Assembly (NCBI GenBank): GCA_034412795.1
Contig: DAOUMD010000141.1
Coordinates: 1-25,305 of the forward strand
DNA length: 25,305 nt
Direction: 5' to 3'
Origin: Anaerolineae bacterium
Lineage (GTDB): Bacteria; Chloroflexota; Anaerolineae; 4572-78; NAK82
Shown: in pieces, positions 7,552 to 24,963 of the stretch
Layout: the number at the start of each line of letters is the position of its first letter
Numbering within the stretch: position 1 is the stretch's first letter
Notes under the pieces: model-generated
What the model was told of the DNA's origin: nothing
What the model saw: only the letters and a program-made list of their open reading frames with translations
Database searches by the model: none
Program-made: the position numbers and the translations under genes

Positions 7552-7589
7552 ACTTCCGCCTCCAAATCGTGCAAGTCTTGAGAAACAGG

Positions 7590-8232: not shown

Positions 8233-8244
8233 CGCCCCGCTACG

Positions 8245-8300
8245 ATCTTTGAATACTTGACAAATCTTTCAATTTGGATTAAAATGAAAGTATTCGAAAC
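8245..8300 (+). promoter_or_regulatory. Promoter for the DeoR-family gene: TTGACA (8259-8264), N17, TAAAAT. Flanked by inverted repeat GAATACTT...AAGTATTC.
   Basis: Hexamers and IR read directly. Lies 45-80 bp upstream of ATG 8340. Confidence 0.4.
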
Positions 8301-8339
8301 TAGCTTGATAAAACTGAGGACAGGCAGCAACTATCGAAA

Positions 8340-9113
8340 ATGCTCAGAGACTTATTTCTCGAAGAGCGTCGGCATGAGATACTGAGACAAGTTAGCCAAC
8401 GTGGGCGGGTCTCGGTTGCCGAACTCAGTCGGCGGTTCGGCGTATCGGAGGTGACCATCCGCTCCGACCTGCAAGCCCTCGCCGAATGCAACTTGCTCGT
8501 GCGCACCCACGGAGGCGCCGTCCCCGCCACGCGCGGCTTGTACGACCTGTCACTGGCGTCGCGCCGTCAGCGGCAGGTACAGGAGAAAAGCCGCATTGGC
8601 CAGGCCGGCGCAGCGCTGGTGGCTGACGGCGACGCCATCTTCCTCGACAGCAGCAGCACCGCCTTAGCCATTGCGGCGCATCTAAAAGACCATCGCCACT
8701 TGACGATTATCACCAATGGTTTGGCCGTCGCTCAGGAGATGCTTGATGCCCCGGGTGTGATGGTGGTGATGGTAGGTGGCACGTTGCGGCGTGACACCGC
8801 CTCACTGGTCGGAACCGACGGCCTGGAAATGCTGCGTAAGTATAACATTCAAAAGGGATTCTTCGGCGCACACGGCATCAGCTCCATCGAGGGCTTGACC
8901 GATGTCAGCGCCGAGGAGGCCGAGATCAAGCGTCCCCTGGTGGTTGCTTGCCGTCAGGTCATCGCTGTGCTGGACGCGACCAAGTGGGGTCAGGTGGGCC
9001 TGGCTTCCTTCGCCCACATGGAGCAGATCCACAGCGTGATCACCGACCGTCACGCGCCCCCTGATCTGGTCGAGCAGGTTCGTTCGCTGGGAATTGAAGT
9101 AGTTCTGGTTTGA
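8340..9113 (+). CDS. DeoR/GlpR-family transcriptional regulator (HTH plus sugar-phosphate-binding DeoR C-terminal domain).
   Basis: N-terminal [40 protein letters not shown]-terminal DeoRC-like region ([15 protein letters not shown]...ITNGL). Confidence 0.85.
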
Positions 9114-9124
9114 ATATCATGCCT

Positions 9125-9162
9125 TAACCTTCCCGGAAGTTTCGGAACTTCCGGGAAGGTTA
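9125..9162 (+). terminator. Perfect 17-bp stem-loop (TAACCTTCCCGGAAGTT tcgg AACTTCCGGGAAGGTTA) after the DeoR gene. No U-tract.
   Basis: The two arms are exact reverse complements. Confidence 0.5.
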
Positions 9163-9223
9163 TCCACACACTGGTCCGAACATCACGCGCCGAACAGCGC
9201 GTCAATCAAACGGAGGATACGAA

Positions 9224-11314
9224 ATGGAAGCAACTGCATCGCTCACCGCCGAGAATATATCGGCCATGATAGAGGAACAGGCACTCACTAAAGAAGATCT
9301 GATGAATTACCTGCGCCAGGTGATGGAGATTCGGGCCTTTGAGAACAACATCTCCATTTTGCTGGGTAAGGCAGTTCTCAAGGGCGCGTCCCACCTGTAT
9401 GCCGGACAGGAGGCCACTGCCGTCGGCGCCGTCGGCGCGCTACGTGACGATGACCTGGTCACCAGCACTCACCGCGGTCACGGTCACGCCCACGCCCACG
9501 GCGATAGCGCGGCCAAGACGCCTGAAGCCAAGCAGGAGCACTACAATAAGATGATGGCCGAGGTCTTGGGGCGCTCGGGCGGCTATTGCAAAGGCAAGGG
9601 TGGTTCGATGCACATCGCCGACGTGGATCACGGCAACATGGGCGCAACCGGCATCGTGGGCGGTAACATCCCGGTAGCAGTGGGAGCCGCCCTGGCACAG
9701 AAATTGCAGGACACCGATCGCGTGGTGCTGTGCTTCTTCGGCGATGGCGCCTCCAACACGGGTAACTTCCACGAGGCGCTCAATATGGCCAGTCTGTGGG
9801 ACCTGCCGGTGATCTTCGTCGTCGAGAACAACATGTATGCTATGTCCGTCCCCTGGGCCAAAGCCAGTAAGCTGCCCAACATCGCCGATCGCGCTTGTGC
9901 CTATGGCATCCCCGGCGAGGTGGTGGACGGCATGGATGTCCTGGCCGTGCGTGGCGCTGTGGCCGAGGCGGTGGAACGCGCCCGGCGCGGCGAAGGTCCC
10001 ACCCTGATCGAAGCCAAGACCTATCGTTGGTACGGCCATTCCCATTCCGATCCGCGTGCCTACCGGACCCGCGATGAGGAGGCAGCCTGGAAGGAGCGCG
10101 ATCCCATCACCGTGCTCAAGAACAATATGCAGACCGTCAGTTTGCTGGATGAGGCCGAATTTGAAGACCTGGATAAAGCGGTCAAGGAAAAGCTTGATGT
10201 CGCCATGGCTTTCAGCGAAGCCTCGCCGGAGCCCGACCCGGACGAGCTGTGCACCGACGTGTATGCCCCCTCTAAATTCACCCAGGCGGACATCGATGCC
10301 GAGCGCGAGTTGCGCCAGCGGGTGCGCAATGGCTCGGATATACGAGAGATACCCTATGCCCAGGCTTTGCAAGAAGCCCTGCGTGAAGAGATGGAGCGCG
10401 ACGAGCGGGTCTTCATCTTTGGCGAAGACGTCGGGCTGTACGGTGGGGCTTACGGCGCGACCCGTGGCCTGTGGGAAGAGTTTGGCGAATGGCGCGTGAT
10501 CGACACGCCCATCTCCGAAGCGACGGTCGGTGGCGCCGCAGTAGGAGCGGCCATGGCCGGCATGCGCCCCGTGGCCGAGATCATGTACGTGGACTTCACT
10601 CCGCTGGCCATGGACCAGATCGCCAACCAGGGCGCCAAAAATCGTTACATGTTCGGCGGCAAAACCAGCGTGCCCATGGTCATCCGCACCGAGGGCGGCG
10701 CCGGGCGGGCCATCGCCGCCCACCACTCACAAAGCCTGGAGGCGCTCTGGACCCACTTCCCCGGCATCTACGTGGTCATGCCCGCCACGCCGTACGATGC
10801 CAAGGGGCTGCTCAAAGCCGCCATTCGCGACGACAACCCCATCATGTTCATCGAGCACAAGATGCTCTACAAGGAGAAGGGGCCGGTTCCCGAAGAGGAG
10901 TACCTTGTCCCGTTGGGTGTGGCCGACGTGAAGCGCGAGGGAGCGGACGTGACGCTGGTGACCTACTCGCGTATGGTGCTGCGCGCCCTGGAGGCGGCCG
11001 AGATCCTGGCTGAGGAAGGAATTGACGTCGAGGTGGTTGACTTGCGCACCCTCAAGCCGTTGGACATCGATACCGTCATCAACTCGGTGGTAAAGACCGG
11101 GCGTTTTGTGGGCGTCACCGAAGGCTACGAGAACACCAGCTTCATCAACGAGGTGATGGCCCAGGTCAACGATTTGGCCTTCGATTGGCTGGACGCGCCC
11201 ATGGTACGCGTGGCGGCGGCCAACGTGCCGGTGCCCCGTGCCGAGATACTGGAAGATATGGCCATCCCCAACGTGGGACGCATCGTCGAGGCCTGCAGGA
11301 AGGTGGTGAGCTGA
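9224..11314 (+). CDS. Fused 2-oxoacid (pyruvate/acetoin-type) dehydrogenase E1 component, with alpha (TPP-binding) and beta (transketolase-like) domains in one chain.
   Basis: The alpha half carries the TPP motif GDGASNTGNFHEALNMASLWDLPVIFVVENNMYAMS. The beta half carries EDVGLYGGAYGATRGL...transketolase_C. RBS CGGAGGA. 696 aa. Confidence 0.85.
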   Translation: MEATASLTAENISAMIEEQALTKEDLMNYLRQVMEIRAFENNISILLGKAVLKGASHLYAGQEATAVGAVGALRDDDLVTSTHRGHGHAHAHGDSAAKTPEAKQEHYNKMMAEVLGRSGGYCKGKGGSMHIADVDHGNMGATGIVGGNIPVAVGAALAQKLQDTDRVVLCFFGDGASNTGNFHEALNMASLWDLPVIFVVENNMYAMSVPWAKASKLPNIADRACAYGIPGEVVDGMDVLAVRGAVAEAVERARRGEGPTLIEAKTYRWYGHSHSDPRAYRTRDEEAAWKERDPITVLKNNMQTVSLLDEAEFEDLDKAVKEKLDVAMAFSEASPEPDPDELCTDVYAPSKFTQADIDAERELRQRVRNGSDIREIPYAQALQEALREEMERDERVFIFGEDVGLYGGAYGATRGLWEEFGEWRVIDTPISEATVGGAAVGAAMAGMRPVAEIMYVDFTPLAMDQIANQGAKNRYMFGGKTSVPMVIRTEGGAGRAIAAHHSQSLEALWTHFPGIYVVMPATPYDAKGLLKAAIRDDNPIMFIEHKMLYKEKGPVPEEEYLVPLGVADVKREGADVTLVTYSRMVLRALEAAEILAEEGIDVEVVDLRTLKPLDIDTVINSVVKTGRFVGVTEGYENTSFINEVMAQVNDLAFDWLDAPMVRVAAANVPVPRAEILEDMAIPNVGRIVEACRKVVS

Positions 11315-12831: not shown

Positions 12832-12895
12832 GCCGGGGCGTCGTTGCCTGGCCCGCAGGCCAAGACCGGCAATGATGCCCCGGCTTTTTGTTTTT
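12832..12895 (+). terminator. Intrinsic terminator of the E1-E2 operon: stem GCCGGGG...CCCCGGC followed by TTTTTGTTTTTG.
   Basis: Stem arms 12832-12838 / 12877-12883 with a T-run at 12884-12895. Two short hairpins precede it (12714-12730 and 12773-12791). Confidence 0.55.
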
Positions 12896-12987
12896 GCTCG
12901 CTTGCGTCCCGCCCCACCCACCCCGCCCCGTCATCATCTCAAAAGCCCCCAGCTTCCCCCCCGCCAACCCGCGTCGAGAACGTTCCC

Positions 12988-13036
12988 CAATCTACCAGCA
13001 TACCAATCTACCAACCCACCAACCCCAAATCTACCA
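12988..13036 (+). promoter_or_regulatory. Three direct repeats of (C)AATCTACCA in a C-rich tract immediately upstream of the SPFH-gene promoter. Candidate activator-binding array.
   Basis: Copies at 12988-12998, 13003-13013 and 13026-13036, read directly. Confidence 0.35.
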
Positions 13037-13046
13037 AAAACCGACT

Positions 13047-13178
13047 TGATTTTTGTCGTAAAACATGGTATCATAGACATAATCATTTGTCATAACAGCA
13101 CAACCTGTTGTGTGCTGGTTAACAAGCGGACATGGTGCGAACTCCTCTCACTCCTCGACGCACCCTTTTTTGGTCATA
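13047..13178 (+). promoter_or_regulatory. Promoter (TTGATT 13047-52, N16, TGgTATCAT 13066-74) plus a 110-nt leader. The leader holds a hairpin at 13097-13116 and a terminator-like stem GGTGCG...CGCACC followed by CTTTTTT (13134-13171).
   Basis: Hexamers and stems read directly. RBS GGGAGGTGG before ATG 13193. Confidence 0.4.
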
Positions 13179-13192
13179 CGGGAGGTGGATGG

Positions 13193-14950
13193 ATGACGGC
13201 CAATACCGTAACCGCTGAGCAGTCTTCTGCATCAAGGGGATTGGGCACTCTCGGGACAGCCTTATTCTTTCTCTTAGTTCTGGTAGGTGTCTTTTTCTTC
13301 TATAGCCACTTCTTCGATTCGGGATATTTCGGAGACGATCTCTGGTGGCACCTGGGCACGATATGGTTATTGGTTGGGGTGGGGATATATGTCCTGTTTT
13401 TGCTGAATCCCGCCAAGCGAAGGTTCTGGTTGTTTGTCTACCTTATCTTCGTGCTTACTATCGCCTTCGGTGCTTTTTTCCAAAGCCAAATCACTGGCGG
13501 AACAGGGGTCACTCGCCTCATCCAGAATAGCCCTCTGCTCACCTCCTTATTCGGGGGATACTTCAAAAGCGTGATCTGGTCACTGGTATTTGGCCTATTG
13601 ATCGCGCTCTCTTTGGTTATTGTGCCCCTGCTCATCATTGCCTTCGCCGCCTCCGAATACGTGCTGGCCCTGCACGAAATCGACGGTGTTCGCCGTCGGG
13701 ACGCCGTGAGTTACGTGATTGCGTTGATACTGGGCATCAACCAGCCCTTCATCGTGGTCGAAGACGGCCAGGCGCTGGTTACCAAGGAGGCTGGCAAGAT
13801 CAACGTCATTGGTGGGCCAGGCAAGTTGATCATCAAGCAGGGCAACGTAGTTGTGTTGGAACGCGGCGGCAAGATCACGCGCGTGCTAAACGCCGGCGTC
13901 CACAAGCTTAAACCGCTGGAGAAGATACGCAATGTCTTCAACTTGGGCCGCCAATCCAACTCCGATGAGATAGAGCACGTTCTGACCAAGGATCGCATAC
14001 CGCTAAAGATCAAGTTGGGTATCGGCGTCCAGATTGAGCCGGCCTCCGAGGCCGACAAACGCCCCGAAAGCCGCATCTCGCCCGATGGGGAAGCGCTGAC
14101 CCCAAGACTGGACGACGGTATGTACGCAGTATACGAGGGCACCATTCGTAAGGCGGCTCAGATGTCCCAGGCTACCTCTTTTGCCAAACGTGAATTCAAG
14201 AAGTGTGACGAAGAGCAGGTATGTCAGGACGTGCAAGAGACCACCTGGAAAAAAGTCGCCGGCGGACTGCCTGAAGGTGATTTGCGCGACCATATTATGA
14301 GCCATCGATTTGACGAGTTATTTGAACTGGTTGACAGCGCACCCGGGGAAAAACCTGAGATTCGGGTCGACAAGCGCAAAATTTATGAGATTGAGCAAGC
14401 CATCCTTGAAAAAATCAAGCCCGGCAAACTAAAGGGACTGGGGGTGCTGGTGCACGGTGTGGATATTGGGAAGATCGAGTTTCCAGAAGAAGCGAAAGAC
14501 CTGTTGTTAAATCGCTGGGGAGCTCCGTGGCAACAGCAAATACAACTTATAGAGGCTAAGGCAAAAGCGAAGGGTGAGTTGCAAGCCAAATTACTGGCCG
14601 CTCAAGGCGACCTGGAGGCAACACGGATGGAAGCACAGGGTGAACGGGAAATCGCGGATCTGAAAGCTCAAGCTATTGTAATCAGTGCCCGCGCCAAAGC
14701 CCAGAAACGGGTTATGGAAGGGCGTAGTCAAGCAGAGGCGCGGGCAGCCTTCTTCCAGTTTATAGTGGAAGCACTTCAAGTGGATGGGCGCCCAATAGAT
14801 CCCCAACTAATGGGAGCCATACTGAAGGAATTAGCTTGCTCCTTTGCCTCAGTTAATGATCTTGAGACTTTCATGAGGGTGCATGGCAGATTGAATCGGC
14901 AAGCAGATTTCTCATTGGGTCAGGACAATGGGACAGTAGCAAGTGATTGA
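13193..14950 (+). CDS. SPFH/band-7 (stomatin/HflK/flotillin-like) membrane protein with a polytopic N-terminal domain (about 5 TM), a large insert in the SPFH core and a coiled-coil tail.
   Basis: VVLERGGKITRVLNAGVHKLKPLEKIRNV...HVLTKDRIPLKIKLGIGVQIEP aligns to the SPFH core (VVLRFGK..L.PGLHF.IPF...V....VLTKDG..V.VD.VVQYRI). C-terminal GVLVHGVDIGKIEFPEEA matches the end of the SPFH domain. Ala/Gln/Lys-rich coiled coil. Paralog of 22984-24570. The ORF-track start at 12872 is an upstream low-complexity extension. Confidence 0.75.
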   Translation: MTANTVTAEQSSASRGLGTLGTALFFLLVLVGVFFFYSHFFDSGYFGDDLWWHLGTIWLLVGVGIYVLFLLNPAKRRFWLFVYLIFVLTIAFGAFFQSQITGGTGVTRLIQNSPLLTSLFGGYFKSVIWSLVFGLLIALSLVIVPLLIIAFAASEYVLALHEIDGVRRRDAVSYVIALILGINQPFIVVEDGQALVTKEAGKINVIGGPGKLIIKQGNVVVLERGGKITRVLNAGVHKLKPLEKIRNVFNLGRQSNSDEIEHVLTKDRIPLKIKLGIGVQIEPASEADKRPESRISPDGEALTPRLDDGMYAVYEGTIRKAAQMSQATSFAKREFKKCDEEQVCQDVQETTWKKVAGGLPEGDLRDHIMSHRFDELFELVDSAPGEKPEIRVDKRKIYEIEQAILEKIKPGKLKGLGVLVHGVDIGKIEFPEEAKDLLLNRWGAPWQQQIQLIEAKAKAKGELQAKLLAAQGDLEATRMEAQGEREIADLKAQAIVISARAKAQKRVMEGRSQAEARAAFFQFIVEALQVDGRPIDPQLMGAILKELACSFASVNDLETFMRVHGRLNRQADFSLGQDNGTVASD

Positions 14951-14985
14951 TCCGCTCGCGCAGCCTCTGTTGAGACAAGGGATTC

Positions 14986-15105
14986 TAAGAACCTGTTTGA
15001 AAATTATTAACCCGTTGTCCCCCTACATATTGGGGGACACTGACCGATACGCCCACATGTAGGTTCAAACCGTTCCAAAACGTGCTAAGAGCCTGTTTGA
15101 AAATT
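14986..15105 (+). promoter_or_regulatory. Two 20-bp direct repeats TAAGARCCTGTTTGAAAATT exactly 100 bp apart, flanking a 7-bp-stem palindrome (GTCCCCC tacatatt GGGGGAC, 15017-15038). This is the upstream region of the S24 gene.
   Basis: Read directly: 14986-15005 and 15086-15105. Confidence 0.35.
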
Positions 15106-15129
15106 GGCTCTAAGTTAGGAGTGGCAATT

Positions 15130-17346
15130 ATGGCATCCCATAGACAAGCCAGTGATGAGATTATTCAGTTTCTGGAGGATTTTCAAGGTACATCACCAGA
15201 TTTGCCTATTTCAGTGGTCGGTCATTGGCAGGAGGCGATGGCAATATGCAAGAAAACAAAGCCGAATTGGAGCAAAGCTGCAGATTTTTGCAATTGCATT
15301 GCAACGGTTTTGAATGGATTGCGTGGCAGTGGAGGGGATTTGGGGCAACTTGAAAAATCTCAGGGACAGATTTCGATTCTTTTGGGTGCCATAAGTCTGG
15401 GCCAGAAAGACTGGTCTGCGGCAAGTTACTATTTTGAACAAGGAGCCAGACGGCTGAGGCAATGGGGGCACACGTCTCTCGAAAGTCTCGCCTATTTTGG
15501 CCGGGCTTTGACTCATAAGCAGGAAGAAAACTGGCCTGGGGCCTTGGAAGCGGCGCAAAAAGCATTGGATGCAATCCACGGCCTTCCTGTTCCTGATAAG
15601 TCGATGCATACTAAGCATTTGCAAAAGCGGATTGAGGAAGGGATCAGATCCATCGGGGAGGTCTCCGCGAGAGTTATTGCGAAACAACCACCAAGTCGGA
15701 GGCCAACGCCTTCTAGGTCTATGTCTAGCCCTCCCCTTCCAATACCGATAGTAAGCAATATTGCAGCTGGCCTCGGCGTCATTGTCGAAGAAAACATCGA
15801 GAATTATCTCCTCTTAGACGACGATCGCCGTAACGACGTCGACTTTGGGGTAAGAGTGGTTGGGGAAAGTATGAAAGGTGACGGCATCCTGCCGGGGGAC
15901 ATCGCCCTTATCCGCCAACAGCCAATAGTTGAAATGGGAGAGATCGCTGCTGTCGTTGTTACGACGCCTACAGGTTCCGAGGGTGTGCTTAAGCGATACC
16001 ACCTTGCATACGAAGAACGGCCGAGTATGTTTCACTGGTTCCTCAAGTCCAGCAATCCGGCCAGTGAGCACCTAGTTGTCATACCCAGTGGCGCAGATAT
16101 TATTGCAATCAAAGCTATATACGAGAATGCAATTCGATCTGGCCGAATACGCAATCCGATTGAGTATTACGAGGACGCTGAACTAATCATTGCCGGAAAA
16201 TATGTCGGATCAGTAAAGAGTATACCGATATCCAGTGACATCAGTGCCTTTACCGCCGGGCCAGGGCGGATTGGAGATGAAAACACTGAGGGGTTCATAT
16301 CTCTAGATGTGAGTTATCGCACTATGGTTGACTTTGGGGTAAGGGTGATAGGAGACAGTATGAAAGGTGATGGTATCCTGCCTGGGAATATTGCACTTAT
16401 CCGTCAGCAGCCAGTTGTTGGGGAAGGAGAGATTGCCGCCCTTGTGATTACAACATCGACTGGCAGGGAAGGGGTACTTAAAAGGTACTACCCCGAAGAA
16501 AGTGAGGGTTTGCAGCACTGGCTTCTTAAGTCTAGTAACCCCGTGGCCAAGGATTTAGTTGTTATACCGCCTCATACAGATGTAGATCAGATTCGGAATC
16601 TATATGCCAGGGAAATCCAGAGTGACAGGGTCGAGTTTTATGAAGATGCTGAACTAGAAGTCGTTGGCAAATATGTTGAGTGTTTCGAGGAGGAATCTTT
16701 TTCAGTTCCAGTTATCTCCACCATAGATAGGGTAAAGCAACCATCAGTGAAGACGGCTGTTGAGAGTTTAGGCGGTTACGCTGAAGTAGAGATTCTTGCA
16801 GGCAGGATTGCGGAAACTGTTAGTGAGCGTCTAACCGGGGCTACACATCAACTAGCCGAGGCTAATTACAGATATTATGACGAACTCAAAGGTATGATTC
16901 GGAAACTTCCGTTTGCTGGTATTGAAGTGCTCGATAACTTCGAAGGATTTGTAATTGCAGAAATTCCTGATGCTAGAAAGGAAACTGGCCAAGCCCCAAA
17001 CAAGGATCGCTATATTTTGCATGGGGCACAGAAAAAGCACGAGATACATATCTCCATCCAATCGGTTGAGCCTTTGGGAGCTACTGACAGCGTTGTTGAG
17101 ATTATTCGAATAATTGATGGTGAGGACGTGGAATATGTCAACTTTGTAGCCAGGTTGGACTGTAATACACTCGATTTTGAACAAGCTGAGTTTACAATTT
17201 CTGTTCCATCCAGATATGCAAAGCCGTCTATTCCGAAAAAAGTCGTTTCCATTACAGGCGAACGAGGGATACATAATCTATTCATTCATATCTCTCAGAA
17301 GAATACACTTGTCCAAGTCCTCTTCATAGAATTGGAGATTCGCTAG
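15130..17346 (+). CDS. Multidomain protein with a TPR-like helical N-domain, a Pro/Ser linker, two tandem LexA-like S24 peptidase domains and a C-terminal domain of about 230 aa that I cannot assign.
   Basis: Both repeats carry the Ser-Lys dyad context (RVVGESMKGDGILPGD...GVLKRY and RVIGDSMKGDGILPGN...GVLKRYY), closely matching LexA (RVSGMSMKDIGIMDGD...VTVKRL). Each is preceded by a LexA-like cleavage region (NIAA-GLGV and FTA-GPGR) about 33 residues before the Ser. RBS AGGAGTGG before ATG 15130. Confidence 0.8.
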   Translation: MASHRQASDEIIQFLEDFQGTSPDLPISVVGHWQEAMAICKKTKPNWSKAADFCNCIATVLNGLRGSGGDLGQLEKSQGQISILLGAISLGQKDWSAASYYFEQGARRLRQWGHTSLESLAYFGRALTHKQEENWPGALEAAQKALDAIHGLPVPDKSMHTKHLQKRIEEGIRSIGEVSARVIAKQPPSRRPTPSRSMSSPPLPIPIVSNIAAGLGVIVEENIENYLLLDDDRRNDVDFGVRVVGESMKGDGILPGDIALIRQQPIVEMGEIAAVVVTTPTGSEGVLKRYHLAYEERPSMFHWFLKSSNPASEHLVVIPSGADIIAIKAIYENAIRSGRIRNPIEYYEDAELIIAGKYVGSVKSIPISSDISAFTAGPGRIGDENTEGFISLDVSYRTMVDFGVRVIGDSMKGDGILPGNIALIRQQPVVGEGEIAALVITTSTGREGVLKRYYPEESEGLQHWLLKSSNPVAKDLVVIPPHTDVDQIRNLYAREIQSDRVEFYEDAELEVVGKYVECFEEESFSVPVISTIDRVKQPSVKTAVESLGGYAEVEILAGRIAETVSERLTGATHQLAEANYRYYDELKGMIRKLPFAGIEVLDNFEGFVIAEIPDARKETGQAPNKDRYILHGAQKKHEIHISIQSVEPLGATDSVVEIIRIIDGEDVEYVNFVARLDCNTLDFEQAEFTISVPSRYAKPSIPKKVVSITGERGIHNLFIHISQKNTLVQVLFIELEIR

Positions 17347-17349
17347 CCA

Positions 17350-18627
17350 ATGGGACGATCAGGGAAACGTAAGCAGCCCATTCTTACAATTGAAGTGTTT
17401 AGTATGAGTGACCAATCTACCGAAATAGGCTTCAGTGGTTCAGGTGATTTTCAAAGTAGAACATTTCGCATAGAGGATTTTGGTTATAGAAGCCTACCCG
17501 AGCATTTTGAACGTTATAGTTCAGCCTTGGAAAATCTCAAAAGAAAATTCGGCAAAGGTGACAAGCAGGAGCAGCCCAGTGAACTGAAAGAGGCAATCAA
17601 AGAACTCTCCAATGGCACAAGTTACTTATATAATTACTTATTTCGAAGACGTAATGATGTCTATGTGGACATCGTAAATCATCTAAGAAATCATATACCT
17701 ACGTCTGATCCAAGACGGGGCGAGGACGTGAACGTGATTGAGGTAAGGGCAAGTAGTATTAAGCATATTATTCCCATCGAATGTCTAGTGATGCCGGATC
17801 ACTCTTTGGGACTAGAGATCAAGGAGAAAAAAGATGTAGTCAGAGCCACATTAAACGTTCTAGGATTCTCGTTTATTATTAATCGAGTGGTTACACATAT
17901 GGAAAGAGTGAGCCAAAAACGAGAGCTTTGTAACGTTCCGGCGTTACCGCTGAAGCAGTTTTACGACGGGTCTCTCGAAGGGGCAGGATATGAGTGTGAT
18001 TTTTTTAAAGGCAAGAGGTTTGGAAGATATTTTCGCTTGGATGGTCCTTGGCCAGAGAGAGGCTCCGATTTTGAAGCGGAAGATGTGGTTCGATACTTCT
18101 ATAGACCCGATCTTGGGTTTGGTCAGGTTATTCAAGCAGAAGCAATAGGACGTCAATCTGACGAAATCCATCATCTATCTTGCCATTGCTATACGGATGA
18201 AAATGCCTCCTGGAGAAGTTTTTTACGTTTCACAGACAGACTCAAAGTAAGTTTAGAGGAAATGCAAAGTCATTTGCCGCATCTCAAATTCAGGGAATAT
18301 TCAGATAAGGAAATGCCTTTAATATTTCTAAATGCTTGCGGTGGCTCGAAGATATCCCCTGAAGGAATGACCTCTTTCCCCGACTATTTTCTAAACGACA
18401 ACCAAAACTGTGGATTTATTGGTAGTGAGACCAATATTCCGGATCCTTTTGCCGCCGAATTCTCTCAAGAGTTTTATTTAAACTTAATACGAGGATTCAC
18501 AATTGGCGAGGCTTTGTTCTGGGCACGTCATACAATGTTGAATAGGTACAACAACCCTCTAGGAATTCTCTACACGTTTTATGGAGATCCATATCTGAGA
18601 GTCACGAAGAAGGCAGATGACCTCTGA
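17350..18627 (+). CDS. CHAT-domain (caspase-like, clan CD) protease.
   Basis: His region EIHHLSCHCYTD and Cys region PLIFLNACGGSK, followed by a CHAT-like tail ending GDPYLRV. AT-rich codon usage like the upstream gene. Start 17350 versus 17404 is uncertain. Confidence 0.75.
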   Translation: MGRSGKRKQPILTIEVFSMSDQSTEIGFSGSGDFQSRTFRIEDFGYRSLPEHFERYSSALENLKRKFGKGDKQEQPSELKEAIKELSNGTSYLYNYLFRRRNDVYVDIVNHLRNHIPTSDPRRGEDVNVIEVRASSIKHIIPIECLVMPDHSLGLEIKEKKDVVRATLNVLGFSFIINRVVTHMERVSQKRELCNVPALPLKQFYDGSLEGAGYECDFFKGKRFGRYFRLDGPWPERGSDFEAEDVVRYFYRPDLGFGQVIQAEAIGRQSDEIHHLSCHCYTDENASWRSFLRFTDRLKVSLEEMQSHLPHLKFREYSDKEMPLIFLNACGGSKISPEGMTSFPDYFLNDNQNCGFIGSETNIPDPFAAEFSQEFYLNLIRGFTIGEALFWARHTMLNRYNNPLGILYTFYGDPYLRVTKKADDL

Positions 18628-18825
18628 AATCAGTTCATACAATTGAACGCCGAACGAAAAAATTAGAAAGCACATTAGACCAAATGATTAACAATATGGC
18701 CCCTTCACAATTGACAGTAGCGCCAACTAGGCAAGAAAGTCGGAGCACCACTCTCAGATTCGTTGACGTGTAAAGTTGGTAAGAAGACGCCAGCATTAAT
18801 TCAATTGCATAATTGAGGAGGAAGT

Positions 18826-19149
18826 ATGAGCGAGCGTACAATCGTAATAATCGGTCGGGAAGACACAGAGGATCGAGGTATCTTGGGCAATGCGAGTCAA
18901 TGGGTTTTTGAACGAGAGGAAGTCTCGGTAGATCACATAAAATCCCAACTCATTGATTTCCTTTCTAGCATGCAGGAAATCTTGGATGGTCTTCCAGACA
19001 AAATGGCTCGGTATGAACTTGAGTCGATGGATGTAAGCGTAGAGATCAGCACGAAAGGAAACGTAAGCCTTGTGGCGGTTGGTGGGGAGTTAGGCGGTAC
19101 GGGTGGCTTGACATTGCATCTAAAAAAGAAGTCACCAGGCCAGCAATAG
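18826..19149 (+). CDS. Small (107 aa) protein, function not assignable. Likely accessory component or substrate of the protease pair.
   Basis: Strong RBS GAGGAGG 5 nt before ATG. Gly-rich C-terminus (AVGGELGGTGGLTLHLKKK). Same AT-rich block and strand as the protease genes. Confidence 0.55.
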   Translation: MSERTIVIIGREDTEDRGILGNASQWVFEREEVSVDHIKSQLIDFLSSMQEILDGLPDKMARYELESMDVSVEISTKGNVSLVAVGGELGGTGGLTLHLKKKSPGQQ

Positions 19150-19775
19150 AGCATCCTAATCAAGAAACTGATTGATATATTGTTATTATGGCAAGCTGAT
19201 AGATCACAATCACGGAATTACTAAGAGTGGTGATTTGAGCGACAGGGGTATCCTGCAATGGTCCTCCATCACTTCATTTCATACCATACCACTTCGACCA
19301 AATTTCCTAGCGTAGGCAGCGTCCATAGCGCAAACTACCATAGGGCATGTTGTCATCTCGAAGGATCATCCTATGATCAACTAAGACTGCTTACCCTATG
19401 TCTAAGGACATTGGTCACAAGTTAAGCAGATTGGAAATTTGTCAAATTCATGCCCTACACAATAACACAGGCCATCAAGGCTGAGATTTCGCAAAGTTCT
19501 AATCAAGCCAGTTTGTTTCACCTAAGTGTTCGTTGGTACATCTGGCTGTGACCATAGCCAAATTGACCAAGAGCTTGTTGAAAAATCGGCTGGAAATCTA
19601 TAAGTTTCTACCTTGACAAATCGCGAAAACGCTTAACTTGTAGGTTGTGGTCTAAGACAGTAGCTCCTTAGTATCTGTAAAGAAATAACTTGTGAGTTTT
19701 GGTCCTACATAACGCGCAAAGAATCACAACTTATTTTTTTACAAGTACTTAGTTAAGATCGTGCTGAGGTGACCT

Positions 19776-20858
19776 ATGCCAGTCTGTGTATCGTGTCGCG
19801 GAGAATACTGGGCTCCAACCGGAAGTGGGCAGAACACTAGTGAGCAACCACGGGATGCACCTACACCATCCGCATTCGATCAAATTGCGCGGTCTGAAGA
19901 AAGCCAAGCACCCGAGGCACCCGCATCGACACATGCGTCACTCTCCCCATCATCAGGCCTGGCGGAGGCATACGACCTGCGTGACCTGCCGCCCTTCGTT
20001 TGCGCCCGCTGCCGTCAGAGCAACCGGCGCTGGCACGAGTGGGCTACCGCCCGCTTTGGCGCCCATTTTATACGTTTCTTCTTTCAAAGCATTCCCTGGG
20101 GTTTGCTGGCATTAATCTCCTTCTTGTTGCCTCTGGTAGCCATCGCTGCCGCCGACACGATCACGCCTGTCGCCTCGGTGCGCATCGGGATTCCCCTGGC
20201 CCTCTTGCTGATCTTTGTCAACGTCGCGTTGCTGTACGCCATCAAAAACTCATTGTGGCGCTACGATGTCTTGAGCCGGGTCGGGCGTGGCTTCAGGCCG
20301 TCGCTGGTCACGCTGGGCGTCACCTTTTTTATCCTGGCGCTGATCTTCGGCCTGGCTCTGGTCTTCATGATGGAAGCCCGCGCCGACGACCCGGAGGCGG
20401 GGCCGACCCAGGGGCTGCTGCGTGTGCTGACCACCATTATGCTGGCGCTGACCTTCGTCAACGTGACAATCTCCGCTATGTTCTTATCCGCCCACGATTA
20501 CGCCAAATGGCTCGACCGTGAGATGCCGCAACCCATCTACGCCCAAGAAAAACGCTTGTTGAGGCTAATTGAGGACGGCGTGTTAGCAAGCATCAAGCGG
20601 GCGACAGGCAAAGAGGATGAGGGAGTGGCAACCACTATCGTGGATATGGAGCGTTGCAAGGATGGCGGCGCTGACCTGGTGATCGGCGCCGAGGTCGCAT
20701 CGAACGGAGACGGGTCGCTGATGAAGTTGCAGAACTGGCAGGTTAAAGCTGATCGCTGGGGCCGAATAAGGAAGATGAGCCGGGAAGGTCCCCCTCAGTA
20801 CGTGGAGTTGCCCGTTGCCGAAAGCTCTGAAGATGATGAAGGTCAAGGGAATGGATGA
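19776..20858 (+). CDS. Zinc-ribbon (CxxC...CxxC) multi-TM membrane protein with a cytoplasmic C-terminal domain that I cannot assign. Paralog of the next gene.
   Basis: N-terminal CVSCRG...CARCRQ, then 3-4 hydrophobic helices. C-terminal motif WQVKADRWGRIRK shared with the next gene (WRVVSDKWGRVTQ). RBS GAGGTGA. Confidence 0.65.
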   Translation: MPVCVSCRGEYWAPTGSGQNTSEQPRDAPTPSAFDQIARSEESQAPEAPASTHASLSPSSGLAEAYDLRDLPPFVCARCRQSNRRWHEWATARFGAHFIRFFFQSIPWGLLALISFLLPLVAIAAADTITPVASVRIGIPLALLLIFVNVALLYAIKNSLWRYDVLSRVGRGFRPSLVTLGVTFFILALIFGLALVFMMEARADDPEAGPTQGLLRVLTTIMLALTFVNVTISAMFLSAHDYAKWLDREMPQPIYAQEKRLLRLIEDGVLASIKRATGKEDEGVATTIVDMERCKDGGADLVIGAEVASNGDGSLMKLQNWQVKADRWGRIRKMSREGPPQYVELPVAESSEDDEGQGNG

Positions 20859-20920
20859 TGCTGGCTGTGTGAAACAGCCGCTGCCATCACGTCCCGCAGC
20901 GTACACCGGATGGAGTAAAC

Positions 20921-21928
20921 TTGTTTAATGAACGTCCCACACCTTTGCCCTGTATAGCCTGCCACACATCCCTGTCTCCTGCCTCCCTCGACTGCTGCCC
21001 CCGCTGTGGCGCGGATAATCGCGCCTGGTTTACCTGGCTGTCTGCCGATCAAAGGGACCACCTCAAGCGATTTTTCCTGCGTAGCCCCTGGGGCCGGCTG
21101 GCGCTGGTCTCGCTGCTCTTGCCCCTTATTTGGGGTGCTCTTAGTGGGCTGCCGGCCTTTGAGACGGTGGTTCTATTTCTGGCGTTCCTGCTGAGCCTGA
21201 CCGGTCTCGTTTTTCTCTTCGCCAGGCGAGATGTCCTGTCCATCCACGACATGGCGCGCCGCGTTTCCCCCGGTCTTCATCCGGAGTTGCTGTCCCTGGG
21301 TGGTACAGGCTTCCTGGTATTCATTGGGGTCGCCGCGATCCTGGTGATCGCTTGGGGATCCGAAGTGTTGGGGGGTGGGCCATCAGCCTTCAACACGTTA
21401 GGAGGTGGGGCTATCGTCTTAGTCGGGCTGGCTTTCACCACCCAGACGTTGGGAGCCGGTCTATATGCCGTGTGTGCCTATGGTCATTGGCTATGCCGCG
21501 CTTTCCCCAGGCCCGTCTTCCTGGACCAGGCGCGGCTTCTGCAATTGGTCCTGCGCGCGGTGGTGCCCCGCATCCAGGTCAAAACGGGCGACACCTATGA
21601 GGCGGTGGCGGCCCAGGTCGTGGCCCTGTCACGCACTAACCGGGCGGGTCTGGATGTGTTGATTCGGGCCGAGGCCGGGACGGACGAGGGTTGGGAGGGA
21701 CACTACCTCAAGGCGGTTCAGCATTGGCGCGTCGTCTCCGACAAGTGGGGGCGTGTGACACAACTGAAACCCCAGGGGCCCCTGGAGTACCTCCCCGATC
21801 TGGACCGCGTGGCCACACCCTTCGCCCCTGGGGATAATGGGGAGAAGGTCTTGGATGGCAAGATTATACCCCCGGAGAAGGAGATATTCCATTATAGGGA
21901 GGTCAGGGATTATCACTTCCGCAAGTGA
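20921..21928 (+). CDS. Second zinc-ribbon multi-TM membrane protein (tandem paralog).
   Basis: CIACH...CCPRCG zinc ribbon, TM helices, and a C-terminal domain homologous to the previous gene. Probable TTG start preceded by GGATGGAG. Confidence 0.6.
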   Translation: MFNERPTPLPCIACHTSLSPASLDCCPRCGADNRAWFTWLSADQRDHLKRFFLRSPWGRLALVSLLLPLIWGALSGLPAFETVVLFLAFLLSLTGLVFLFARRDVLSIHDMARRVSPGLHPELLSLGGTGFLVFIGVAAILVIAWGSEVLGGGPSAFNTLGGGAIVLVGLAFTTQTLGAGLYAVCAYGHWLCRAFPRPVFLDQARLLQLVLRAVVPRIQVKTGDTYEAVAAQVVALSRTNRAGLDVLIRAEAGTDEGWEGHYLKAVQHWRVVSDKWGRVTQLKPQGPLEYLPDLDRVATPFAPGDNGEKVLDGKIIPPEKEIFHYREVRDYHFRK

Positions 21929-22012
21929 CCATAGTGATACTCGATGGCCGAATCGTGGCCTGTCACATTCAATCAGTTGACAGGCAATAACCGCACTAAC
22001 CGCACAACTTTC

Positions 22013-22040
22013 TTGACAGAGCTGCACAATGTGGTATAAT
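22013..22040 (+). promoter_or_regulatory. Near-consensus sigma70 promoter: TTGACA (22013-18), N16, TGgTATAAT (22032-40).
   Basis: Hexamers read directly, in an AT-rich intergenic region. Confidence 0.5.
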
Positions 22041-22320
22041 TGCTAAAAATAGAACAAATGTCCTACAGCAGATATAAGTTTGTGATTGTACAAATTTCCA
22101 TGTCAGTATGAAAGTAATCTTCCAAATTACGTCTCTATGTTGTTTCTTTCTTCTTTGCCTTCTGTGTGTTGCTGCTGGCTATCTCAGGCTGCGCGATGAT
22201 GGCTATATAGGGCTGGAGATTGTTCATACATATTTGCCCAGTCTGATAAACCGTGATCGCAGAACCTTCGCAAGGGTGGCTGAGCAGTTACCTTCATAGG
22301 AAGTTCTAATGAGTTGGTGG

Positions 22321-22349
22321 TTGACAAATGTTATGGCGTATGTTAGAAT
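22321..22349 (+). promoter_or_regulatory. Second strong promoter: TTGACA (22321-26), N17, TAGAAT (22344-49).
   Basis: Read directly. Lies about 160 nt upstream of ATG 22510. Confidence 0.45.
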
Positions 22350-22509
22350 ATCTACAAGCGGATGGAACTGCAGTATCATTAACCAAAGAGATATATCGAA
22401 TTCTGGCTACTGGCTTTGCTGGCTGTCGACCTGATTTTCGGCATGAGGTGATTGACGCTATAGCAAAGTCATTGCCTTTTCGTTGAAAGGAATTGTTTTG
22501 GAGGTTGTA

Positions 22510-22764
22510 ATGCCAGACAGTAGAAGAGGTTCCAATTCGCGGCTAGAAATCTGGTTCAAGGATGAAATTGAGAACACACTAAGTGCAATAGACTTGGCAA
22601 ATGAGGAGTTGTTCGAGATTGTCTGTGTTCCTGAGATGCAGCTCTACCGCCAAGGTTACCAAGCTGCGCTGCGAGCTGTTGCGGAGGCATTTGGAATTCG
22701 GCGTGAGCTGACAGCAAACGGCACTGGACGATCACCGAATATCATAGACGCCAACCCTCGCTGA
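22510..22764 (+). CDS. Hypothetical 85-aa protein in an AT-rich mini-module.
   Basis: GGAGG 4 nt before ATG 22510 (MPDSRRGSNSRLEIWFKDEIEN...). Followed by a strong terminator. No family recognised. Confidence 0.45.
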   Translation: MPDSRRGSNSRLEIWFKDEIENTLSAIDLANEELFEIVCVPEMQLYRQGYQAALRAVAEAFGIRRELTANGTGRSPNIIDANPR

Positions 22765-22811
22765 GCTGGTTCAGAAAATTGAGAGGTTGGTTCGGCACAT
22801 TGATACTTAAA

Positions 22812-22852
22812 CACACTCGGGGAGGTACGAGTGTGTTTTCTTTTCTTTCCCC
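22812..22852 (+). terminator. Rho-independent terminator: stem AACACACTCG / CGAGTGTGTT, loop gggaggta, tail TTCTTTTCTTTCC.
   Basis: 10-bp perfect stem and U-rich tail, read directly. Confidence 0.6.
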
Positions 22853-22983
22853 TTGTTAATACTTGCTGAAGTACATCCCTGCTCTAGGCTGGCTAGGCAC
22901 GATGGCGGGTGCTTCGGGTGTTGCGTATTTTCAGCTTCGCCAGCTATTAATTGGTGTTGTTCACAGTTCTTCCTTTCTGCTCT

Positions 22984-24570
22984 TCAATCAATTGACCATT
23001 TGGACGTATCCGCAGATTGTGCCATGTCACCAGGCAGTAGCGGTCCTTGGATCTGAGTTCCTTGCAGCGTGGCAATAAGAAGCCGCCTGTCCTCAGCTTT
23101 GTTCAGGCACTCGTACAGCGTCTTTATTGTTTCCTTCATCGCATCTTGGTCAAGGAAATGGCGCAGCAGCCTAAGCATTTGCTCGAATTGCTTCGCTCGG
23201 ACCTCAGCTTCTGCCTCGCCACGAGTAACAAGAGCCCCCTTCTCGGCTTCGGCCACGATCTCCTTCACCCTGGCATCCGCATGGGCCTCTAACAGCCTGA
23301 GTGCCCGCTCTTGTACTTGATCCGGTAACTTCACACCCTGGATGTCAACGGCGCGAATTCTTATGCCAAAGTTCTTAGCAGCAGCTTGGGCCCACCGGTC
23401 CAGAATGTATTGTTCTATCTCTTGGATGGTTCGCTGGTCTTCTTTAAACTTTTTCGGTAAGCTACTGTTCTCGTCGAAACCGACCGGGCGTAAAATCTGA
23501 TCAAGGCGATAGGTCGCGATCGTGTCCCGCAGTTGTGACTCCGCCCCGGCCACACTGAGGATCTCCCAGCCGGCGGGTGTCACATTCAGGCCTGCCTTGC
23601 GGACGTTCTCCACCCAGACCGGGTAGTCGCCGCCAATCATAACCTCTTCCTTACCGGCCTTCAAATCATTGATGAGCCGGGTCAGCTTATCCCGTTCTTC
23701 GCCCTCATTCTTGGCTAACTCTTCCTCCAAACGCTTGATAGTATCAGGCAAAGGCTCAATTTGATAGCCCACGCCCACTTTTAAGGTCAACCGCACCCCA
23801 TCGCTGGTCAGGACATCCTCTATTTCTTCGGTTTTCCACAGCGGGTTGAGACGCACAATCTTGTAGACGTACTCGTATAACCTGGTTTTGAACACGCCTG
23901 GGCCCCTAATCTGTGTGATCTTGCCGCCTTTCTCGAGTACCACGGCGTTGCCAGGCCGGACGATCACCCGGCCTGGTCCACCGATCGCGGTTAAGACTCC
24001 CCGTGATCGAGCCCGTGTTTCCCGCCCGTCTTCTATGATCACCCATGGATAGTAAGTTCTGAAGATCAATGAAAATAGCCAGCGCACGGCGTCACGCTGG
24101 GTGATACCTTTGTAATCATGTAGGGCGAGCAGAGGCACTGTAGCTAGCCACATCAGGAAAGCCAGTGGCAAGAGCAAGACAATGACAACCACAACCCCGG
24201 CGAGAAAGCCCAACGCCGCTTGTAAGGCAAGCGCGTTGCGGGTGGTGGCTGCCAACCTGGATTCTCGAGCTGCGGCCGCGATGGCGGGACTGGTAGCGAT
24301 GAAGGTCTGCACCAATGTCGCTACTAACAAGATGACGAAGAGGAGAATCCAGACGAAGGCCAGAAATCGAAAAAGTGGCTTCACAAAGAGTCGGAAAAAT
24401 AGGAGTCCACCCAGGAAGCCCACGGCATAACTCAGCCTCCAGTCGATTTGATATGTGGCGATGGTGAGAAAGATCAATCCAAGCGCAACTAGCGCCATCT
24501 GTACCCCTCCCCCACTTAGCTCGGTCGCTTTCTTGGGTACTTCGCTGGAGATGTCCGTCGTACTGGTCAT
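22984..24570 (-). CDS. SPFH/band-7 membrane protein paralog (polytopic N-domain plus SPFH core with insert plus coiled coil).
   Basis: RGVLTAIGGPGRVIVRPGNAVVLEKGGKITQIRGPGVFKTRLYEYVYKI...DVLTSDGVRLTLKVGVGYQIEP aligns position by position with the 13193-14950 protein. RBS GGAGGAA before ATG. Confidence 0.75.
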   Translation of the reverse strand: MTSTTDISSEVPKKATELSGGGVQMALVALGLIFLTIATYQIDWRLSYAVGFLGGLLFFRLFVKPLFRFLAFVWILLFVILLVATLVQTFIATSPAIAAAARESRLAATTRNALALQAALGFLAGVVVVIVLLLPLAFLMWLATVPLLALHDYKGITQRDAVRWLFSLIFRTYYPWVIIEDGRETRARSRGVLTAIGGPGRVIVRPGNAVVLEKGGKITQIRGPGVFKTRLYEYVYKIVRLNPLWKTEEIEDVLTSDGVRLTLKVGVGYQIEPLPDTIKRLEEELAKNEGEERDKLTRLINDLKAGKEEVMIGGDYPVWVENVRKAGLNVTPAGWEILSVAGAESQLRDTIATYRLDQILRPVGFDENSSLPKKFKEDQRTIQEIEQYILDRWAQAAAKNFGIRIRAVDIQGVKLPDQVQERALRLLEAHADARVKEIVAEAEKGALVTRGEAEAEVRAKQFEQMLRLLRHFLDQDAMKETIKTLYECLNKAEDRRLLIATLQGTQIQGPLLPGDMAQSADTSKWSID

Positions 24571-24681
24571 TTCACATTCCTCCGGTTGTCTGCCATCTCT
24601 CGCACAAGTAAGGACTGGGTTTCGACGTGTGACTTGCGTTCTTCACCCCGTGTCTGCCAGGGAAGCCCGACAACTTTCCAC

Positions 24682-24963
24682 TCACTTTCCAGACACACTA
24701 AACATGGCGAAGGGCAGCGCAATCAGGATGATCGCGAAAAAGATGGCCCAATACGATGCTGTCCGGGGCATTCGATCGAACGGTACATTTCTGAGATTGA
24801 AGTATACGTACAGCGCCGCCAGGTCGAAAATGCCCAGTTGGATCAAACGATTCCATCCGATGTGACATTCGTCGGCACGCAAAACGATCAGCAGAACGAG
24901 CAGGCTAATAAAGACAGGGGGTACAAGGATGCTCCATGGGGAAGGGTCACGTAGAAATTCCAC
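24682..24963 (-). CDS. Small 2-TM membrane protein upstream of, and co-oriented with, the SPFH paralog. Possibly a short NfeD-like partner.
   Basis: AGGAGGTAA RBS 9 nt before a GTG start. Two hydrophobic helices. SPFH genes commonly pair with a small membrane partner such as NfeD. Confidence 0.45.
   Translation of the reverse strand: MEFLRDPSPWSILVPPVFISLLVLLIVLRADECHIGWNRLIQLGIFDLAALYVYFNLRNVPFDRMPRTASYWAIFFAIILIALPFAMFSVSGK

Follow-up and report, generated by a model that had tools for sequence, protein, structure and literature searches.

Part of a contig from an Anaerolineae bacterium (DAOUMD010000141.1 of assembly GCA_034412795.1; the whole 25,305-nt stretch that was analysed is called the window here) encodes, between positions 13193 and 24963, membrane proteins of the SPFH/Band-7 family, a protein with two LexA-like S24 peptidase domains, a caspase-like CHAT protease, a small Pepco protein and two zinc-ribbon transmembrane (TM) proteins, ZnTM1 and ZnTM2. 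We give an even chance to the reading that this region is a composite, in which a lineage-restricted membrane cassette of SPFH, TPR-S24 and ZnTM genes has received, in its S24 slot, a horizontally acquired effector module, with a mechanism that would run from S24 cleavage through CHAT to Pepco. As far as sequence comparison can tell, the acquired module would consist of the second S24 domain, a C-terminal domain termed the X-domain, CHAT and Pepco. The gene arrangement itself is real and non-random.

Gene content was established from a listing of open reading frames (ORFs) together with Pfam scans, and every gene that an earlier, sequence-only reading of this DNA had named was found in its place and on its strand. 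The forward strand carries, in order, the left-hand SPFH gene, SPFH_L, with which the conserved cassette begins (13193–14950; 585 amino acids (aa); Band_7, E 9.7e-9), the tandem-S24 protein (15130–17346; 738 aa; Peptidase_S24, PF00717, E 5.7e-22 in two stretches, with weak N-terminal TPR matches), the CHAT protease (17350–18627; 425 aa; PF12770, E 9.4e-9), the Pepco protein (18826–19149; 107 aa; PF24393, 65.9 bits against a cutoff of 27), a 626-nt spacer with a GC content of 0.41 (19150–19775), ZnTM1 (19776–20858; 360 aa) and ZnTM2 (20921–21928; 335 aa), the last two without a Pfam match. Thus, tandem S24, CHAT and two zinc-ribbon multi-TM paralogues do share one strand, as had been read from the letters. 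Both the tandem-S24 protein and CHAT are soluble and have no TM segments.

The loci fetched (L001–L026, L001 being that of the window) include contigs of metagenome-assembled genomes (MAGs) of Chloroflexota/Anaerolineae and of metagenomes. Among them, about 11 non-redundant loci of Chloroflexota/Anaerolineae (L003–5, L006, L007/8, L009, L010, L011, L012, L018/19, L020/21, L022/23 and L024–26) repeat the order SPFH_L, TPR-S24, ZnTM1, ZnTM2, and this synteny held with either seed, S24 or ZnTM1. In all related loci an SPFH_L orthologue (47–65% identity) immediately precedes the S24 gene, and wherever there is enough flanking sequence the SPFH_L orthologue is followed by one or two S24 genes, then by ZnTM1 (42–88%), which always stands 3′ of the S24 gene(s), and usually by ZnTM2, which is present in most loci. 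Homologues are rare (18 clusters for the S24 protein and 36 for ZnTM1, none of the latter with a Pfam domain) and come from Chloroflexota/Anaerolineae MAGs and metagenomes. Scans with the ZnTM alignment returned two loci in genome contigs and two in metagenome contigs; these contig scans were pattern-limited and therefore give no estimate of prevalence. CHAT and Pepco were found in none of the ~11 other cassette loci. The co-conserved neighbourhood on which the sequence-only reading had staked its proposal is hence real for SPFH_L, S24 and ZnTM, and does not extend to CHAT-Pepco, to the right-hand SPFH gene (SPFH_R) or to a 93-aa ORF beside the latter; CHAT, counted there as part of the set, is cargo of this cassette only, with a low GC content at third codon positions (GC3).

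The two ZnTM proteins are 4-TM paralogues with 32% identity. In ZnTM1 an insert of variable, disordered sequence interrupts the zinc ribbon (C4xxC7 ... C76xxC79), after which come four TM helices and, at the C-terminus, a conserved α+β domain, whereas ZnTM2 has an uninterrupted CxxC-x11-CxxC ribbon; the ribbon cysteines are invariant in the ZnTM alignment. A Foldseek search of PDB with an AlphaFold2 model of ZnTM1 (pLDDT 64) gave no significant match, the best (E 0.1) being NTF2-like. A further, reverse-strand gene, which we call rev110, separates ZnTM1 from the last S24 gene in eight loci (L004 6085–6450, L007 11941–12297, L010 9455–9787, L011 ~444–773, L012 9231–9596, L017 4671–4985, L020 9459–9791 and L023 7291–7656). 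Its products, of 104–121 aa and 40–63% identity, have no Pfam match and share the motif VILQPxAMxxPNxHxIYSPSKLxP...LVTAYGxGLDCWYIV; in the equivalent spacer of the window (19150–19775) there is no trace of it.

The tandem-S24 protein can be divided by comparison with its shortest relative, since residues 1–365 match the whole 346-aa minimal protein of L010 (61%) and residues 366–738 are extra. The core part, TPR-S24 (aa 1–365; 15130–16224, +), has a TPR-like N-domain of class A (aa 1 to ~195) and a first S24 domain with the site A213^G214 in the segment NIAAGLG (15757–15777, +), Ser247 (GESM) and Lys288 (LKRY). The second S24 domain (aa 366–530; 16225–16719, +; GC3 0.44) is 55–58% identical to the first and has A376^G377 (AFTAGPG), Ser410 (GDSM) and Lys451 (LKRY). 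The family nearest to these domains is LexA (TIGR00498, E 4.6e-20; LexA is among the PDB matches). In a phmmer alignment of residues 203–275 with E. coli LexA, IAA^G falls on A84-G85 and GESM on Ser119; the LexA lysine was placed through the family alignment with an E. coli LexA sequence entered by hand, which agrees with the phmmer alignment where the two overlap. The scissile Ala-Gly bond lies ~33 residues N-terminal to the catalytic serine, and the A-G site, Ser and Lys are kept in both window copies and in most homologues. Two S24 copies, L003b (11784–12725 of L003) and that of L007 (10001–11887), have changed Ser to Gly and Lys to Arg jointly, as is expected of true active-site residues in a family with pseudo-enzymes. 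By these motifs, both S24 domains of the window look catalytically competent and self-cleaving. In several proteins a degenerate S24-like domain precedes the active one (middle regions in L006, L007 and L022), and the evidence suggests that S24–S24 pairing serves structure as well as catalysis. An identity as a LexA orthologue was rejected, because TIGR00498 scored 72 bits against a cutoff of 111; the Pfam scan matched no helix-turn-helix (HTH) family in the protein. A comparison of the N- and C-terminal domains of the tandem-S24 protein with the N-terminal half of CHAT, as a test for pairing of the EAD type, found no similarity.

Homologues of the S24 protein carry N-terminal HNH plus TRADD-N, Trypsin_2, TIR_2 or EAD7 domains, and several contain a degenerate S24-like domain or are accompanied by a second, separate S24 gene. 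All three of the effector-bearing S24 genes that could be checked (trypsin in L006, EAD7 in L007 and HNH in L024–26) follow an SPFH_L orthologue, and ZnTM genes stand 3′ of the effector-bearing gene wherever the contig reaches that far (L006, L025–26). On domain composition, the S24 protein is thus the putative variable effector slot of the cassette. This polymorphism can be followed at one orthologous site, 3′ of genes for DeoR and the E1 and E2 subunits of a 2-oxoacid dehydrogenase, that is shared by four loci, with E1 identities to the window of 97.7% (L006), 89% (L020) and 91% (L024). There, the slot holds a second S24 plus X-domain followed by CHAT-Pepco in the window, a trypsin domain at the N-terminus along with a membrane protein of 133 aa in L006, HNH plus TRADD-N in L024–26 and nothing in L020; L020 and L026 come from one metagenome. 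The polytopic 133-aa protein of L006 (12407–12808) is encoded between two S24 genes, where the window has CHAT-Pepco, and may be the membrane effector of the trypsin variant; a Pepco identity for this small protein was rejected at an hhalign probability of 0.3. GC3 is 0.38–0.48 in the window's cargo against 0.60–0.71 in SPFH_L and the ZnTM genes and ~0.8 in E1/E2, which is consistent with acquisition of the cargo from elsewhere.

Variation at the site also involves SPFH_L. This polytopic SPFH/Band-7 protein (~5 hydrophobic segments, several of them N-terminal) consists of a conserved SPFH core (aa 200–440), a hypervariable TM region and a class-specific C-terminal tail (aa ~500–585), and its similarity to QmcA/HflC is weak and confined to coiled-coil regions. 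Between the window and L006 (SPFH_L at 7988–9778), genomes whose E1 proteins are ~98% identical, SPFH_L is a mosaic: the core is 82–97% identical, the N-terminal TM region 45–60% and the tail 11–53%, while the promoter and leader of the gene are near-identical. The divergence of the N-terminal TM region beside such a leader is not explicable by linkage to the S24 gene. In 11 of 11 loci the class of the SPFH_L tail equals that of the N-domain of the neighbouring S24 protein, irrespective of how closely the genomes are related: class A in the window, L003, L010, L012, L018 and L020, class B in L006, L007, L009 and L022, and class C in L024. Such co-variation fits a docking of the TPR domain onto the tail, which would bring the switch to the SPFH protein.

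As for the acquired part, the CHAT start codon lies 3 nt past the stop of the S24-X gene, and the CHAT gene (GC3 0.385) ends 198 nt 5′ of that for Pepco. Stand-alone proteins of ~400–445 aa (61 homologue clusters), in which H275/C278/H279 and N328-A329-C330 are invariant, make up the family of the window's CHAT, which had no match among PDB sequences. A Pepco gene stands 3′ of the CHAT homologue in every context fetched (L013, L014/15, L016 and L017), the window Pepco being 65–71% identical to these. Pepco, the 'peptidase co-occurring domain', was formerly known as Trypco1/2 (PMC7159879); experimentally, it is a pre-assembled 9–10-mer β-barrel that turns into a membrane-permeabilising toxin once a neighbouring protease removes a short C-terminal tail, and Pepco-protease pairs are joined to diverse sensors (10.1101/2025.11.14.688446). 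Since the small protein matches the Pepco domain (PF24393, E 5.6e-18), CHAT and Pepco together are a known protease-activated pore-toxin module, and the sequence-only impression that the combination matches no named system was mistaken for this pair. By analogy, the window Pepco is predicted to be a pre-assembled β-barrel pore toxin. It ends in GGLTLHLKKK followed by the 5-aa tail SPGQQ, and in Pepcos linked to CHAT the common motif GG(L/M)xLxLK(K/R)K precedes a variable tail of 5–10 residues. The conserved K(K/R)K with its short tail suggests a cut after a basic residue, and we propose the HLKKK region (encoded at 19117–19131) as the candidate cleavage region for CHAT.

In the other CHAT loci, the gene directly 5′ of CHAT encodes a protein whose C-terminus is homologous to the last ~150 residues of the window's S24 protein. 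This X-domain (aa ~570–738; 16837–17346, +), a helix plus a β-sandwich of ~10 strands, has identities to the window copy of 42% in L013 (E 1e-36), 31% in L014 (E 3e-24), 27% in L016 (E 6e-7) and 41% in L017. X-domain, CHAT and Pepco form a fixed triad in five loci, with −4 to +37 nt between the X-gene and CHAT; the X-domain is always C-terminal and directly 5′ of CHAT-Pepco, and is fused to STAND NTPases (L013/L014 and proteins P0121, P0122 and P0130), to receiver domains or to S24. L017 is a second, independent case of the last kind, with TPR-S24-X, CHAT, Pepco, TPR-S24 and then a small reverse-strand gene. The X-domain therefore appears to be a third, undescribed member of CHAT-Pepco modules, and we propose that it might act as an adaptor coupling a switch domain to the CHAT protease. 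Such a role would explain the connection of a free-standing caspase-like protease to sensors as different as a STAND NTPase, a receiver domain and S24.

From these arrangements we infer the biochemical steps, a trigger and a role in immunity. The class-matched C-terminal tail of SPFH_L would hold the TPR-S24 protein at the membrane until a signal sets off Ser/Lys self-cleavage at A213^G214 and A376^G377; this signal could be a co-protease cue like RecA* or a perturbation of membrane or envelope that SPFH and ZnTM relay. The released S24b-X fragment would activate CHAT, which would cut pre-assembled Pepco barrels behind their KKK motif and so remove the short tail, and the trimmed barrels would permeabilise the membrane, leading to cell death or arrest as abortive infection or as programmed death within a filament. 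The proteolytic cascade ending at the membrane that had been suggested from the letters fits this evidence, with S24 domains that are self-cleaving by their motifs and with Pepco a protease-activated pore (10.1101/2025.11.14.688446).

More generally, and with somewhat less confidence than an even chance would imply, SPFH_L, TPR-S24 and ZnTM1/2 (with or without rev110) may represent an undescribed class of membrane-anchored sensor for immunity or programmed death, in which a LexA-like switch independent of nucleoside triphosphates (NTPs) takes the place of a STAND NTPase, docks to a class-matched SPFH tail and licenses interchangeable effectors (HNH, TIR, trypsin, partners recruited by EAD7, or X-domain/CHAT/Pepco). 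If this is true, immunity and cell death in prokaryotes would have a trigger of a new kind, namely LexA-type self-cleavage that releases effectors post-translationally instead of derepressing genes, and bacterial SPFH scaffolds, together with a new zinc-ribbon membrane family, would gain a defined function as partners of that switch. The effector polymorphism at one orthologous locus amounts to a natural swap set for experiments.

Several observations weigh against the composite reading with its cascade. CHAT-Pepco is present in just one of ~12 cassettes, and L017 lacks the flanking context in which a coupling to SPFH/ZnTM could be seen. There are minimal cassettes with no recognisable effector, so that the core may have a non-immune role, and because the tail-coding DNA adjoins the S24 gene, the co-variation of tail and TPR may be mere linkage through co-transfer. 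A fold search with the X-domain was uninformative, and pattern-seeded scans of viral contigs with the CHAT and ZnTM alignments returned no relatives. Nor is the surrounding DNA that of a defence island: the cassette occupies a conserved chromosomal site amid housekeeping genes. None of nine proteins matched PADLOC at E ≤ 0.1 in a database version (PADLOC-DB v2.0.0, 2023) older than the characterisation of Pepco, so that the look in PADLOC for a catalogued defence system came back empty. Finally, nearly all characterised S24 switches depend on RecA* (PMC7101444), which would leave SPFH and ZnTM no obvious sensing role.

This last point is also the basis of an alternative that concerns the trigger alone and is compatible with the remainder of the composite reading. 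RecA*-ssDNA filaments, formed upon phage replication, prophage induction or genotoxic stress, would stimulate S24 cleavage, as they do for LexA, UmuD and CI, and thereby couple DNA damage to suicide, with SPFH and ZnTM as downstream membrane effectors or scaffolds and not as sensors. The proximity of the S24 domains to LexA, with an exact A-G site and Ser/Lys dyad, speaks for it, as does the RecA* dependence just mentioned. However, the S24 protein has no DNA-binding domain, its family has ~20-residue insertions relative to LexA, damage to DNA would not account for the close association with genes for three or four membrane proteins, and the same paper (PMC7101444) records that IrvR, for one, is LexA-like and cleaves without RecA. 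With membrane partners that are obligatory, the arrangement argues instead for a membrane-associated signal or docking site. We regard DNA damage as a rather unlikely trigger.

A further possibility is that the juxtaposition is accidental, an autonomous X-CHAT-Pepco toxin module having been inserted into, and fused with, the S24 gene, while SPFH_L, S24 and ZnTM serve as a lineage-specific housekeeping membrane-quality or stress module that does not control CHAT. The foreign GC3 of the cargo, its absence from the other ~11 cassettes, the occurrence of the same triad with STAND NTPases elsewhere, the conserved chromosomal site beside E1/E2 and the minimal cassettes without an effector would all be accommodated by such an accident. 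Yet every X-domain shares its protein with a switch or sensor domain (STAND, receiver or S24), the S24-X fusion recurs independently in L017, and the presence of HNH, TIR, trypsin, EAD7 and TRADD-N on the same TPR-S24 scaffold would be hard to explain were S24 irrelevant to effector control. An accident of this kind is therefore unlikely.

Anaerolineae are largely filamentous, and a developmental or stress role outside immunity, such as membrane remodelling or programmed cell death at the level of the filament (e.g., for fragmentation or nutrient release) in these multicellular bacteria, would suit the host lineage. It would also suit the housekeeping context and the conserved cluster of response-regulator/TCAD9-kinase and GAF histidine-kinase genes that adjoins the cassette in four loci, and in multicellular bacteria domains of the death type are over-represented (PMC7159879, PMC8195603). 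Since effector polymorphism between near-identical genomes and the mosaic hypervariability of SPFH_L are more typical of conflict loci, we consider this role quite improbable.

Returning to the composite reading, its parts resemble several known systems. The CHAT-Pepco pair has the sequence-level marks of the Pepco-protease family, namely a Pepco domain above threshold and an adjacent cysteine protease, and like other Pepco-protease modules (Trypco1/2, PMC7159879; SsPepco-SsAvs4, 10.1101/2025.11.14.688446) it combines a ~110-aa Pepco beside a protease, a short tail after a conserved motif and use as modular cargo on varied sensors. It differs from them in that the protease is a stand-alone CHAT rather than a trypsin domain fused to the sensor, that the link to the sensor runs via a separate β-sandwich X-domain, that the sensor is LexA-like S24 rather than a STAND, FGE or PG-binding domain, and that the predicted cut site is basic (KKK) where SsPepco has Ile97. 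A caspase-fold protease that cuts a death effector, or one that damages membranes, at a specific site and thereby licenses it is likewise known from bacterial gasdermin paired with a CHAT/caspase-like protease and from Craspase, the TPR-CHAT of type III-E CRISPR. Here, by contrast, the effector is Pepco, and no known partner is found among the scanned genes; neither gasdermin nor Cas7-11 (gRAMP) had a Pfam or PADLOC match in the genes around CHAT, no dedicated search for CRISPR repeats having been made.

With LexA, UmuD and lambda CI the S24 domains share the fold, the Ala-Gly scissile bond and the Ser-Lys dyad, and their tandem array recalls the LexA dimer. Unlike those proteins, they lack an HTH and carry a TPR-like N-terminus or HNH, TIR, trypsin or EAD7 in its stead, their genes stand amid genes for membrane proteins, and the proposed output is effector release, not transcriptional derepression. 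The swapping of TIR, HNH, trypsin, caspase-like, EAD7 and TRADD-N effectors on a constant core in filamentous lineages is reminiscent of the EAD, TRADD-N and Death-domain conflict systems (PMC7159879, PMC8195603), whose core, however, is an NTPase (STAND, MoxR-vWA or GTPase) and not, as proposed here, an NTP-independent S24 autoprotease with SPFH and zinc-ribbon partners. Pfam scans found no STAND NTPase domain in the window's proteins. The two papers, which define EADs, Trypco and TRADD-N, do not mention S24 or LexA, and SPFH occurs there in a reference list alone. The literature on SPFH with anti-phage activity, on S24 with Band_7 and on LexA-like with caspase or pore-forming proteins, as covered incompletely and with few subscription journals, does not describe the cassette. 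Altogether, the SPFH_L-TPR-S24-ZnTM cassette with its effector slot appears to be undescribed, whereas its CHAT-Pepco part is already known.

Stomatin pairs with the Ser-Lys protease NfeD/STOPP. As in this and other SPFH-protease operons (HflK/C-FtsH; stomatin-NfeD), the SPFH gene of the cassette is directly followed by a gene for a protease with a Ser-Lys dyad; the protease here is, however, a soluble and apparently self-cleaving S24 of the LexA clan, not an NfeD/ClpP-like protein or FtsH, and the SPFH protein, which is polytopic, contains a large insert. NfeD and FtsH had no match in the 18 window proteins scanned, so that the gating by SPFH scaffolds that had been invoked from HflKC-FtsH and stomatin-NfeD stays an analogy. 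A scan of NCBIfam returned sub-threshold LexA/UmuD and HflC matches alone.

The right-hand end of the region is occupied by orf84 (22510–22764, +; 84 aa, small and soluble, no Pfam match), SPFH_R (22984–24570, −; 528 aa; Band_7, E 2.3e-11) and a hydrophobic 93-aa ORF 5′ of SPFH_R (24682–24963, −; no Pfam match). The two SPFH proteins are indeed paralogues (30% identity over 345 aa, E 3e-44), and SPFH_R, too, is polytopic with several N-terminal hydrophobic segments. Near the cassette, however, SPFH_R homologues occur in two other loci only, in L009 beyond three two-component genes and in L020 5′ of SPFH_L, each with an orf84 homologue beside them (54% and 51%, respectively), and none was found within 10 kb of the cassette in L003, L012, L018 or L022. 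SPFH_R and orf84 are thus a loosely linked second unit, neither bracket nor core cassette, and an enclosure by convergent SPFH paralogues is not conserved. Although paralogous polytopic SPFH genes flank the region, SPFH_R and orf84 recur near two further cassettes and L007 has a second SPFH-like gene, a single system in which SPFH cages gate S24 and CHAT in the manner of HflK/C-FtsH or stomatin-NfeD is very improbable, given the shifting position of SPFH_R, the separate promoters and terminator of orf84, the lack of FtsH or NfeD homologues and of a conserved small TM partner, and the solubility of both proteases. That presumed partner, the 93-aa ORF, does have two to three hydrophobic segments; it has no Pfam, NCBIfam or PADLOC match and no homologue in related loci, and may be neither a real gene nor a real partner of SPFH_R.

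The 581-nt gap before orf84 contains two promoters, of which one is an exact match to the sigma-70 consensus (TTGACA-16-TATAAT with TG) and the other agrees with it at 11 of 12 positions; a promoter and terminator scan placed the orf84 promoters at 22013–22040 and 22321–22349 and a strong terminator hairpin at 22809–22838. A small ORF for a hydrophobic 63-aa product (22108–22299) lies between the two promoters.

At the other end, the elaborate regulated promoter and leader that the left SPFH gene had been said to possess proved real in part. A promoter-like site with an extended −10 element (13046–13074, +; TTGATT-17-TATCAT with TG) is preceded directly by three direct repeats, CCnAATCTACCA (12985–13036), and followed on the same strand by a leader motif comprising a TAACAA box (13120–13125), a GGTGCG/CGCACC hairpin (13134–13164) and a T-run (13166–13171). 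The combination of TAACAA, GC hairpin and U-tract before the ribosome-binding site is common to six loci (the window, L003, L006, L007, L012 and L022); the TAACAA box is invariant, and the sequence of the GC-rich hairpin is locus-specific. The folding energy of the leader relative to shuffled sequence (z = 0.03) makes no case for an unusually stable structure, RNAalifold supported a 5-bp GC stem only, and Rfam gave no real match in the leader (E ≤ 1) or in the whole window (gathering scores). The motif could be an attenuator or a leader element. The gene caller and all orthologues place the start of SPFH_L at 13193 (MTA.../MAA...); a 692-aa ORF from 12872 was rejected as an artefactual 5′ extension, in which 12872–13192 is the Pro-rich translation of the repeat-bearing promoter region.

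The 5′ flank of the cassette is made up of housekeeping genes, encoding an ABC sugar transporter, DUF4432, TetR and DeoR proteins and the 2-oxoacid dehydrogenase E1 and E2. Near the cassette, four loci have a convergent cluster of a response-regulator/TCAD9/APH-kinase gene, a receiver-multi-GAF histidine kinase and an S1-receiver-GAF histidine kinase (L001 18097–21278, just past the right end of the window; L009 5417–12858, between ZnTM2 and SPFH_R; L018 12266–19998; and L020 12005–18602). The name of the TCAD9 domain derives from ternary conflict systems. Further upstream in the window, a 103-aa ORF at 6578–6897 is a remnant of an Amidohydro_2 gene, a C-terminal piece covering profile positions 222–289; the intact gene of L006 (1061–1932) matches the window as two blastn fragments with ~545 nt absent between them, and in an adjacent low-GC stretch (~6500–8300) the window has a TetR gene in place of the ADH gene of L006. 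This part of the window looks like a decayed or rearranged region.

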